In this document: in pieces, positions 30,580 through 32,683 of the stretch
How the letters are laid out: the number at the start of each line of letters is the position of its first letter
Position numbering within the stretch: position 1 is the first letter of the stretch
Sequence record: NC_014792.1
DNA from: Escherichia phage vB_EcoM_VR7
Length of the DNA stretch: 64,000 nt
Reading direction: 5' to 3' (one strand)
The notes under the pieces: generated by a model
What the model saw: the letters and a program-made list of their open reading frames with translations, nothing else
What the model was told of the DNA's origin: nothing
The model's database searches: none
Translations under genes and position numbers: made by a program

Positions 30580-30804
30580 TTAGCAGCTACTCGGATACCA
30601 GATTTGACCATCAGCACGAGCAACGAAGGTACGGCCAGCTTCTTCACCATAACAAGAGCTGTTCAACCAGTCTTCAAGACGGACTTCGCCGTCATAATCA
30701 TCGAGCTCGACACCAAAATCTTGAGCAGAAGCCATATCTTTTACTTTCTTATACAGTGCAGCCAGTTCAAGGGAAGCTTTTTCTAATTCATTAATATTGG
30801 ACAT
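30580..30804 (-). CDS. Cys-tail paralog A (ends ...GQIWYPSSC)
   Basis: 74 aa; member of five-gene tandem family with W-x-x-S-S-x-C C-terminus. Confidence 0.55.
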   Translation of the reverse strand: MSNINELEKASLELAALYKKVKDMASAQDFGVELDDYDGEVRLEDWLNSSCYGEEAGRTFVARADGQIWYPSSC

Positions 30805-30813
30805 TTTATCACC

Positions 30814-31041
30814 TTAGCAAGACATAGAGGAGTTGTACCAGAAACCTTTACCATCTGGGATACCGTAATCACCACGAATCCAGTCATACTCTTCGTATTC
30901 TGGACAACCCGCGGGAATATATCGTTGAAGACTGTCAGCATATACATGAAAGTATTCACCAGTTTTATCGGCCAGTTGTTCACCTTCACAGATTAGTGCA
31001 CGGATTTGGTCTTCAATTTCTTTAACAGTTTTAGCAGTCAT
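30814..31041 (-). CDS. Cys-tail paralog B (ends ...GFWYNSSMSC)
   Basis: 75 aa; 9-nt intergenic spacer with AGG-type RBS. Confidence 0.55.
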   Translation of the reverse strand: MTAKTVKEIEDQIRALICEGEQLADKTGEYFHVYADSLQRYIPAGCPEYEEYDWIRGDYGIPDGKGFWYNSSMSC

Positions 31042-31050
31042 TTTATTTCC

Positions 31051-31248
31051 TTAGCATTCGTAAGAGGAGGACACCCAAGAGGTACCACTAATAGTAATAC
31101 AGCCATTATAAAGCGTGATATGTCGTTCTAGGTCACGCTGACCATCAATATAGATATCAGCTTCTTCACGTTCTTCTTTACAAATCTGGATAACGTTTTC
31201 AATAGCTGCCGCGGCAGTACGGATTGCACAATCTAATTCACGAGACAT
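31051..31248 (-). CDS. Cys-tail paralog C (ends ...TSWVSSSYEC)
   Basis: 65 aa. Confidence 0.55.
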   Translation of the reverse strand: MSRELDCAIRTAAAAIENVIQICKEEREEADIYIDGQRDLERHITLYNGCITISGTSWVSSSYEC

Positions 31249-31257
31249 AATAGTTCC

Positions 31258-31539
31258 TTAACATTCAGAAGAGGAGGACACCCAACCGCCTTTTTCCAGG
31301 CTGGTAGTGTAATCATGTTGGTTTACAATAGCCCATTCAGGATGACCATGTTCTTCCCAATGAGCAAGGTCAGCTTTCAGGGCGCCAGGAGAATAATAGT
31401 CACCGCCCATACCGCGAGCAGGGTATATATTAAAATGAGTCTCATATTTGTCTGCAATTTCCTCGGCACGACGAATAGCTTTATGGATGTCATTTACTGC
31501 GTTAGCCAGTTCTTTATTTTTACGGTAATCATTCATCAT
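31258..31539 (-). CDS. Cys-tail paralog D (ends ...GGWVSSSSEC)
   Basis: 93 aa. Confidence 0.55.
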   Translation of the reverse strand: MMNDYRKNKELANAVNDIHKAIRRAEEIADKYETHFNIYPARGMGGDYYSPGALKADLAHWEEHGHPEWAIVNQHDYTTSLEKGGWVSSSSEC

Positions 31540-31548
31540 AGCGTTTCC

Positions 31549-31839
31549 TTAGCACATTGCCGAAGAGGAGACCCAAGCACCAACTGTAACGACACCGTTT
31601 TCAACTTCACCGCCGTTGTTTTCAATTTCATCTTTAAACCACTGGGAGCATTCATAACCGACAGGATAATATGTACGGCCCGAACCATAATCACCGGTAC
31701 CAAATTGGATACCATATTCATCTGCGATTTCTTCACAGTGTTTTTCAATTTCAGAGGTCTTATTTAGAAGAGAATAGATAGCTTTTTCTGCAGATTTCTC
31801 ATCATAATACTTGGGGATAGCAATTTCAATTTTATTCAT
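31549..31839 (-). CDS. Cys-tail paralog E (ends ...GAWVSSSAMC)
   Basis: 96 aa. Confidence 0.55.
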   Translation of the reverse strand: MNKIEIAIPKYYDEKSAEKAIYSLLNKTSEIEKHCEEIADEYGIQFGTGDYGSGRTYYPVGYECSQWFKDEIENNGGEVENGVVTVGAWVSSSAMC

Positions 31840-32189
31840 GATTTACATTCCTTAATAAAGGTTTCAAGGTCATTACGTTTTGTTTTGTCTAGGAACTTAT
31901 TATACTCAGCCATTGCTGAAGCGTATCTCTTCCGACTAGGAGCATTCACGGCATTTGTGTGGCAAATATCATACACAACAGGGATAAAATAAGACACAAC
32001 AGCCGGAGCGATTATCATAAAGAAACCCATCTCAATGGGCATCACTCCCTCGATTGCAGCCATAACCGTGGTCATTACCAGACCAACCAAGCCGCCAAGC
32101 ATGGCGGTGACAATCCCTAATAATAAATTGGCACCAATATCATATTCAGCCAATTGATAAACATGTGATGCAAGACTAGGCCGTTCCAT
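31836..32189 (-). CDS. Small multi-pass membrane protein
   Basis: Track ORF 31836..32282 trimmed to Met at 32189; hydrophobic helices. Confidence 0.4.
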   Translation of the reverse strand: MERPSLASHVYQLAEYDIGANLLLGIVTAMLGGLVGLVMTTVMAAIEGVMPIEMGFFMIIAPAVVSYFIPVVYDICHTNAVNAPSRKRYASAMAEYNKFLDKTKRNDLETFIKECKS

Positions 32190-32466
32190 TACGAATCTCC
32201 TTAATAAATTCTTTGGCACATTTAATTTTGTGCTCTTCTTGCAGGGAAACACATTTTTGTTCCCACTCTTTAACTCGCCCACGATATCCTTTATTCATAT
32301 GATTTTGATGCCACACATTTATCAATATCATACTCAGGACTGTAATAAAAGGAGCTGCGATTATTAGCGCCCAGGCAACTCCAACACTAATGATATCCAT
32401 ATCTCCACAAACAACCATCATTATAACTCCAACGATGCACATGGACAGAGCTCCAAACGCAGGCAT
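32176..32466 (-). CDS. Small multi-pass membrane protein
   Basis: Track ORF 32176..32550 trimmed to Met at 32466; hydrophobic helices. Confidence 0.4.
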   Translation of the reverse strand: MPAFGALSMCIVGVIMMVVCGDMDIISVGVAWALIIAAPFITVLSMILINVWHQNHMNKGYRGRVKEWEQKCVSLQEEHKIKCAKEFIKEIRNGTA

Positions 32467-32476
32467 AAGGTCTTTA

Positions 32477-32683
32477 TCAATCTTGTCTGCATATACAAAT
32501 TTTACCTGCCAGAGTTGCCAGTTTAGCAGCTTCGCCACGAGTGATACCAAATACTGCCGGGTTAAATGAAATACCTTCAGCTGTCAGACGTTTGAAGAAC
32601 ATACGCGCTGCTGATTGCGCTTCAGCTTCAGAAGAGTTGTTTAATGCCAGTTTAACATACTTAACCAGTTTTGAAGTTTTCAT
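32477..32683 (-). CDS. Hypothetical protein
   Basis: 68 aa; first gene after promoter cassette. Confidence 0.5.
   Translation of the reverse strand: MKTSKLVKYVKLALNNSSEAEAQSAARMFFKRLTAEGISFNPAVFGITRGEAAKLATLAGKICICRQD

Follow-up and report, generated by a model that had tools for sequence, protein, structure and literature searches.

Why should five neighbouring small genes of Escherichia phage vB_EcoM_VR7 all end in the same short peptide, a tryptophan followed by a pair of serines and a cysteine, when the remainder of their products has diverged? The genes form an array on the minus strand (30580-31839) of a 64,000-nucleotide stretch of the phage genome (sequence record NC_014792.1; the whole stretch is called the window hereafter), in a region that is 91-98% identical to the Gaprivervirus phages VR26, SP18, VR25 and RZ (T4-type Straboviridae), and they occupy a variable stretch between the tRNA genes (tRNA-Arg and tRNA-Met, 34571-34726) and nudE/e. 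The results described below confirm the observation and show it to extend further than the original prediction, made from the sequence alone, could see; a more fitting description is that of an uncharacterised module, widespread among phages, in which Cys-tailed small proteins accompany a MenT-like nucleotidyltransferase (NTase). The best overall explanation, to which we assign a probability of roughly 0.4, is a two-part module whose shared tail would be a tag for the enzyme. The original interpretation as a whole is partly supported.

The array genes, their family and the constraint on the tail

The five consecutive genes, each closing with W-x-x-S-S-x(0-2)-Cys-stop as originally described, are present both in the list of open reading frames (ORFs) and in the sequence, and a six-frame scan of the window (686 ORFs of at least 40 codons; pattern W-x(1-3)-S-S-x(0-3)-C-stop) returned these five alone (5/686), 15 of the 686 ORFs ending in Cys at all. 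All five are homologous, four matching phrog_899 (E 1.6e-9 to 3.7e-23) and one phrog_4882 (E 1e-36). The first, w5 (31549-31839, minus strand; 96 aa, 'type B'; …GDYGSGRTYYP…GAWVSSSAMC; phrog_899 E 3.7e-23), has a start codon that overlaps the stop codon of e.3 (ATGA). It is followed on the same strand by w4 (31258-31539; 93 aa, 'type A'; phrog_899 E 2.9e-20), in which a helix precedes F-x-I-Y-P-A-R-G-M-G-G-x-Y and then GGWVSSSSEC, and whose type is the most widespread, with tblastn matches in 309 phage records. The divergent member w3 (31051-31248, minus strand; 65 aa; …TSWVSSSYEC; phrog_4882 E 9.7e-37) is confined to close relatives and is seen in 18 of the 80 enzyme loci introduced in the next section, while w2 (30814-31041, minus strand; 75 aa; …GDYGIPDGKGFWYNSSMSC, ending in GFWYNSSMSC; phrog_899 E 1.4e-15) is absent from the related phage vB_EcoM_RZ, the number of array genes varying among close relatives. 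The last gene, w1 (30580-30804, minus strand; 74 aa, 'type C'; ending in GQIWYPSSC; phrog_899 E 1.6e-9), carries the motif twice, as an internal DWLNSSCYGE (near 30655-30675) and as the terminal IWYPSSC. This double motif, W-x-x-S-S-C-Y-G-[EG] … W-x-x-S-S-C, recurs in Phapecoctavirus and at two further loci (L034 and L074), and is therefore regarded as a conserved subtype and not as an accident. In the RB69 record (L003 3679-3985), the w5 ortholog is split into ORF139c and ORF138c in different frames, and a related phage (L016, with coordinates matching phiE142) has an intact 101-aa gene; the split is either a frameshift, a sequencing error or a pseudogene.

The spacers between the genes are short, as claimed, each measuring exactly 9 nt instead of the 9-10 nt given, and the stop codons overlap the next Shine-Dalgarno sequence (TAAGGA or TAAGGT). 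The four junctions (30799-31576, minus strand) constitute a 43-nt repeat, with a mutual identity of 63-84%, that comprises the tail codons, TAA with the overlapping Shine-Dalgarno sequence, the 9-nt spacer and ATG. From these repeats alone, one might read the 3' ends of the genes as a translational-coupling or RNA signal with no constraint on the encoded peptide. In the comparison of 5-12 distinct orthologs per array gene from related phages, however, the ratio of non-synonymous to synonymous differences (pN/pS) lay between 0.14 and 0.29 for the gene bodies; over the final eight codons it was 0-0.20, synonymous differences being numerous. The values for w5 were 0.22 (body) and 0.13 (tail), and the tail of w3 showed 0 non-synonymous versus 56 synonymous differences. 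The tail serines are encoded by TCC, TCT or TCG in four paralogs and by AGT, AGC or TCA in the fifth (w1), and the codon for the tail cysteine alternates between TGC and TGT. Because synonymous change is abundant, the serine codons switch between TCN and AGY, and an Rfam search gave no match, the constraint acts on the peptide. Moreover, the last gene w1 keeps its tail with no coupled gene after it, and the tail is kept in distant phages with different DNA. A purely nucleotide-level element, which had been named as one of the outcomes that could overturn the prediction, is effectively refuted by the codon data together with the absent Rfam match, and we consider its probability negligible.

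A word-indexed protein search with w5 found close orthologs only, and an exhaustive profile search was needed to recover the full family, which amounts to 801 cluster representatives (50% identity, metagenomes) at E<=1e-3 and 103 at E<=1e-10. Its members are 60-160 aa long, and the profile ends where the proteins end: 137 of the 149 best global matches terminate in Cys, the remainder having 1-3 residues past it. Among the members encoded beside the enzyme (n = 176 unique), 170 end in Cys, which is the sole cysteine in 68; the spacing from Trp to Cys is 7 (n = 134), 5 (n = 28) or 8 (n = 7), Ser occupies W+3 without exception, and 125 of the 134 members with a spacing of 7 have a further Ser at W+4. 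The members without a terminal Cys (P0134, P0167, P0173, P0229, P0230 and P0234) mostly have W-x-S-S-T-x-x-C followed by one Asn or Ser, so that Thr at W+4 and a residue after Cys seem to co-occur. The enzyme-linked proteins are acidic (median pI 4.4), and the family alignment runs from an N-terminal helix through a short F-x-[FIL] strand, an [AD]-Y-G(-M-G-G) loop and a variable acidic insert to G-x-W and the tail. The corresponding elements of w4, in an AlphaFold2 (AF2) model of this protein fused to the enzyme, are a helix (9-31), a strand (46-49), an insert helix (51-63) and a second strand including the Trp (84-88), with a block-mean predicted local distance difference test (pLDDT) score of 60-90 for the domain except for the GMGG loop and the last four residues (pLDDT <50). 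On account of these low scores, the invariant motifs look flexible and exposed.

The family had been reported as unrecognised, and it has no assigned function: comparison of the five proteins with Pfam, NCBIfam, PADLOC and the PDB sequences gave nothing above noise, and the searchable literature yielded nothing on a module of small proteins with DUF7275-DUF7277. The labels PHROG 899 and PHROG 4882, of which the five are members (E 1e-9 to 1e-36), are cluster names that record no function, tail motif or partner. The small-family profile, when compared with all PDB sequences at E<=10, matched only designed helical proteins and the like.

The array had further been interpreted as duplication with divergence in an evolving set. 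The rV5-like Phapecoctavirus Schickermooser encodes three proteins, each with a specific best match among the window paralogs, namely w5 (E 6e-18), w1 (E 6e-12, the double motif included) and w4 (E 7e-8), whereas no two of the window paralogs match at better than E 5e-5. Since these orthologs are closer to the window proteins than the paralogs are to one another, types A, B and C either predate very different phage groups or were exchanged between them. With paralog types this old and under purifying selection (pN/pS as above), a recent and fast-evolving duplication is argued against.

Linkage of the array to a MenT-like nucleotidyltransferase

The original prediction overlooked a gene 0.3 kb downstream of the array (29330-30295, minus strand), encoding a 321-aa protein with matches to Pfam DUF7277 (E 4e-26) and DUF7275 (E 1e-73) and to phrog_2141. 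Its AlphaFold model is confident (pLDDT 89.5; predicted template modelling score, pTM, 0.83), and a Foldseek search with this model gave MenT1 as the sole credible match (probability 1.0), identifying the protein as an NTase of the DNA polymerase beta (Pol-beta) fold that is structurally closest to MenT1. The catalytic motif is intact: G6, S7, D25 and D27 do not vary and E69 hardly does, a pattern of conservation that would fit an active enzyme, and the C-terminal helical domain contains many invariant residues as well. The enzyme family has 1,926 members in a large protein database, and 730 phage genome records were matched. The Pfam scan returned DUF7275 and DUF7277 alone, with no DUF1814/AbiEii match; there is no PADLOC or NCBIfam match, and phmmer against PDB sequences finds nothing. 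RlaP (PF10127), a phage RNA-repair NTase, was rejected as an identification, being of a different Pfam family to which the enzyme has no match, and so was QatB/QatC, with unrelated chemistry at the N-terminus.

The two gene families are tightly co-localised. In RB69, Minot and the Ralstonia phage RSP15, homologous small genes lie directly upstream of the gene for an enzyme of about 320 aa. Among 80 diverse viral-contig loci encoding the enzyme, extending to about 40% identity at the lower end and taking in contigs of roughly 360 kb, a hidden Markov model (HMM) of the small family detected 1-6 members at 73, all on the strand of the enzyme gene and nearly all upstream of it within about 3 kb, two loci having a weak extra match downstream. 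Three of the seven HMM-negative loci have an upstream tail-ending ORF on inspection, bringing the total to 76/80. When the neighbours at the 80 loci were clustered, the small-family clusters, found at 73, 34 and 18 loci, were the only ones common to most of them, the best unrelated cluster reaching 31. The module occurs in Tevenvirinae, Twarogvirinae, RSP15, Phapecoctavirus, Otagovirus and the contigs of about 360 kb. The reverse search, starting from six distant small-family representatives, led to the enzyme just downstream of 1-5 tail-bearing genes in 5/5 informative contigs, the sixth being too short. T4 has neither the small genes nor the enzyme at this locus. The gap that separates the small genes from the enzyme can be as short as 9 nt (L097) or as long as about 3 kb, and in the window it contains a 55-aa ORF together with promoter-like sites. 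By reason of this linkage, it is very likely that the five proteins and the NTase form a functional module.

The linkage also bears on the reading that the small proteins are independent effectors acting on host targets (anti-defence, host takeover, or thiol or metal chemistry), with a tail read by a host factor and the enzyme as a co-regulated companion in the same cassette. Such a view would be in keeping with the position of the cassette in the hyperplastic region from e to the tRNA genes, its absence from T4, the varying number of array genes in close relatives, and the lack of predicted docking between the two proteins in the AF2 run considered below. Co-localisation across unrelated phage lineages, with otherwise differing neighbour genes, is nevertheless hard to explain unless the two parts are functionally linked, so that we regard fully independent effectors as distinctly improbable.

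Several individual loci deserve mention. One locus without small genes (L062, 5004-5930) has its NTase gene broken into two ORFs, and the near-identical L051 and L052 are intact. Enzyme homologs of phages of Gram-positive hosts (Annadreamy, Smoothie and phage G) keep the catalytic motif, and no tail-bearing neighbours were found beside them. In Bacillus phage G, a 117-aa acidic protein with a helical N-terminus is encoded just upstream of the enzyme homolog (L092 2702-3055) and ends in …EEETSSSW; this Ser-Ser-Ser-Trp terminus without Cys may correspond to the tail, either as a distant analogue or by convergence. In RSP15 (L005 3435-6825), an RNA ligase gene is located directly downstream of the enzyme, and the upstream flank encodes a protein that is annotated 'phosphatase' and has a weak likeness to macro domains (Pfam Macro, E 0.022, which falls short of the gathering cut-off); in the Streptomyces phage Annadreamy, an RNA ligase gene lies about 1.2 kb upstream of the enzyme homolog. 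The neighbours in these two phages give hints of an RNA-repair or RNA-end context of the module. The occasional vicinity of an RNA ligase recalls RlaP, itself a Pol-beta NTase of phages associated with RNA ligase, which differs, apart from its Pfam family, in that no partner array of small Cys-tailed proteins has been reported for it.

Upstream neighbours and flanking signals

A functional association of the array with the two small membrane proteins encoded upstream of it, as originally envisaged, finds no support. The two are homologs of T4 e.4 and e.3, and T4, with the gene order e.3, e.2, nudE, possesses both of them and no array; no cluster resembling e.3 or e.4 is found among the conserved neighbours of the 80 enzyme loci. 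In the Acinetobacter phage Minot, it is a helicase gene that immediately precedes the small genes, and no e.3 or e.4 homolog is annotated upstream of them in RSP15, Phapecoctavirus or Otagovirus. Farther upstream in the window, a 68-aa ORF (32477-32683) overlaps the start of e.4 in a different frame; it covers only positions 1-63 of the 147-position phrog_18416 profile, with a weak match to DUF2786. In SP18, VR25 and RZ, the place upstream of e.4 is taken by a 184-aa gene and e.6 instead of this ORF, and the similarity of VR26 to the window stops near 32736. Sequence seems to have been deleted or replaced at this point in the window.

The promoter proposed for the array (32727-32755, GTGTAC-N18-CATAAT) was missed by a sigma-70 scan whose number of sites was at the level of shuffled sequence; it is a plausible candidate. 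Because promoter and terminator scans performed no better than on shuffled sequence, the boundaries of the transcription unit are unproven. Directly past the last stop codon of the array lies a hairpin with perfect pairing (ATCACA-AGGA-TGTGAT, 30560-30575); after it come a strong AGGAGG with a 12-codon mini-ORF (ATG at 30547-30549) and then a promoter-like GTGTAC-N17-TATCAT (30533-30505), which has its GTGTAC -35-like hexamer in common with the proposed upstream promoter. With these elements (30505-30576), transcription of the array may be set apart from that of the enzyme. The intervening 55-aa ORF (30309-30476, minus strand; phrog_20278) is probably outside the module, since other phages hold different genes at this place, such as an unrelated 83-aa ORF in RB69. 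On the enzyme gene's opposite flank, a 216-aa ORF (28683-29333) without a Pfam match overlaps the NTase stop codon by 4 nt in an ATGA-type coupling, and is not conserved beside the enzyme in most other loci.

Possible roles of the shared tail

That the terminal motif is a recognition or modification tag is the favoured and best-supported part of the original interpretation. The tail has been kept while the bodies of the small proteins diverged almost beyond recognition, and it is this situation, one enzyme facing several anciently different proteins that keep only a flexible C-terminal motif, that leads us to favour a shared tag; we hold tentatively, with somewhat less than even confidence, that the tail is a substrate tag for the NTase. 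In the predicted scheme, the clients, members of one old phage family, are small, soluble and very acidic. Each begins with an amphipathic helix at its N-terminus; a short strand leads into a flexible Tyr-Gly(-x-Gly-Gly) loop, and a variable acidic insert precedes a Trp-ending strand, after which comes the flexible S-S-x-x-Cys tail. A single enzyme would bind physically to the one tail tag presented by these different proteins, the Trp and the terminal Cys, at their fixed spacing of 5 or 7 residues, serving to anchor the invariant Ser (W+3) in the active site. In the following step, the NTase would attach a nucleotide (nucleoside monophosphate, NMP) to a hydroxyl or thiol group of the client; the acceptor may be a Ser or the Cys of the tail or, alternatively, the invariant Tyr of the flexible YG loop. 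We speculate that this nucleotidylation switches the clients on or off, or redirects them, early in infection, in the service of accessory host takeover, tRNA-directed activity or anti-defence; an anti-defence or host-interaction role, as first suggested, is possible.

A precedent exists in the superfamily of the enzyme, as MntA adenylylates its partner HepT (PMC7641770). The phage module resembles HepT/MntA (HEPN/MNT) and GlnD/PII in pairing a Pol-beta-superfamily enzyme with a small partner protein and in that its proposed acceptor, a tail Ser or Cys or the loop Tyr, would belong to a motif that is both invariant and flexible. In those systems, however, the acceptors are Tyr residues in one cognate partner, whereas the phage tag is proposed to be borne by several different proteins, and neither component is known to be homologous to its phage counterpart. 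ANT(2'') and LnuA, antibiotic O-nucleotidyltransferases of the same superfamily, modify the hydroxyl groups of small-molecule substrates; the phage enzyme differs from them also in having a much larger, highly conserved helical C-terminal domain (DUF7275). Ubiquitin-like or sulfur-carrier proteins of the ThiS/MoaD type were considered and rejected, as the small proteins end in Cys and not in Gly-Gly and are predicted to consist of a long helix and two short strands, not of a beta-grasp fold, and the partner enzyme has the Pol-beta fold, not the E1/ThiF fold.

Several observations weigh against the shared-tag module. The small genes are not always beside the enzyme, the gaps of up to about 3 kb containing unrelated ORFs, and a small gene is lacking within 5 kb at four of the 80 enzyme loci, three of which have an intact enzyme. 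A free Cys carboxylate is not strictly required, because a few members have 1-3 residues after the Cys. In the AF2 run with a paired alignment of the enzyme-(G4S)6-w4 fusion, pTM was 0.63, as compared with 0.83 for the enzyme alone, and the tail was of low confidence. This run, made with 25 paired sequences and a linker fusion and with no contact read-out, is a weak one; it predicts no confident docking and appears to favour neither the tag nor an inhibitor of the MenA1 kind. Lastly, the enzyme has its closest structural relatives in the MenT toxins, whose targets are tRNA 3' ends and not proteins (PMC10435456).

The last point leads to the main rival explanation, according to which the small proteins are MenA1-like inhibitors or specificity factors of a tRNA-directed, MenT-like enzyme and undergo no covalent modification. 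Their N-terminal helix and acidic surface would fill the positive RNA cleft, the site for the acceptor or the nucleotide being blocked by the tail. The comparison is with MenAT1 of M. tuberculosis, composed of MenT1 and the 68-aa MenA1, a mainly helical protein that is encoded upstream and blocks the electropositive active-site face of MenT1 (PMC10435456). The points in common are these: MenT1 is the best structural match of the phage enzyme, with which it has in common the MenT-type Pol-beta NTase fold and the catalytic G[GS]…D-x-D; the small phage genes are upstream of the enzyme and on the same strand in nearly every case; and the small proteins, of low median pI as noted above, each begin with a long helix. 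The phage enzyme is, on the other hand, no member of DUF1814/AbiEii by sequence (its Pfam families being DUF7277 and DUF7275), which sets it apart from MenAT and AbiE, and the small proteins display no homology to MenA1 or AbiEi/COG5340, either in the profile search of PDB sequences or by a Pfam match. The phage module comprises 1-6 paralogs with a C-terminal W-x-x-S-S-x-x-C tail, belongs to lytic phages and is of variable adjacency, the small genes often being neither next to the enzyme gene nor translationally coupled to it. A single enzyme stands against 3-6 paralogs that have been distinct since ancient times; the invariant residues are nucleophiles in a flexible tail and do not form a helical interface, whereas the C-terminal part of MenA1 is dispensable (PMC10435456); AF2 predicts no complex; and the enzyme is intact at some loci without small genes. 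Taken together, these differences make MenA1-like inhibition unlikely in our judgment, if the foremost among the competing explanations.

A third line of thought starts from the resemblance of the tail, with its Ser and C-terminal Cys (170/176 members), to the precursors of lanthipeptides and of peptides with an aminovinyl-cysteine (AviCys) group. A Ser located 2-4 residues before a strictly C-terminal Cys is reminiscent of the AviCys and lanthionine ring motifs of epidermin-type peptides. The small proteins might thus be precursors like those of ribosomally synthesized and post-translationally modified peptides (RiPPs), the S-S-x-x-Cys-COOH end being converted, by nucleotidylation of Ser and subsequent elimination, into a lanthionine- or AviCys-like thioether ring or into a small molecule made on the protein scaffold. 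Several precursor-like paralogs per enzyme and the Gly-Gly motif of type A members agree with this idea. It conflicts with the prediction of folded domains, not leader peptides, for the bodies, and with a conserved 'core' next to a variable 'leader', the reverse of the usual RiPP logic. Because no other enzyme is conserved nearby, neither a LanB/C/M/KC/L or LanD protein nor any dehydratase, cyclase, decarboxylase, protease or exporter recurring at the 80 loci, RiPP-like processing has a very low probability.

Returning to the shared tag as the preferred explanation, its furthest-reaching form would be a new phage protein-tagging chemistry, in which a dedicated MenT/ANT-like enzyme recognises a short, degenerate C-terminal tag, W-x-x-S-S-x-x-Cys-COOH, on small acidic proteins that otherwise look unrelated, and nucleotidylates the tag or processes it further (for example to dehydro or thioether products). 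We regard this form as speculative and rather less probable than the tag itself. If true, the tagging would yield a set of modified effectors used early in infection, a phage counterpart, in logic, of the CaaX-box or ubiquitin-tail systems that is based on a Pol-beta enzyme. The module is widespread, occurring in T4-like, rV5-like, Pseudomonas, Acinetobacter, Aeromonas and Ralstonia phages, yet both of its parts are annotated as hypothetical or DUF proteins. Whether the outcome proves to be tagging or regulation, a function would be given to two large families of phage 'dark matter', and the answer would reveal to what use a virulent phage puts a MenT-like enzyme, be it at tRNA ends, in host takeover or in counter-defence.

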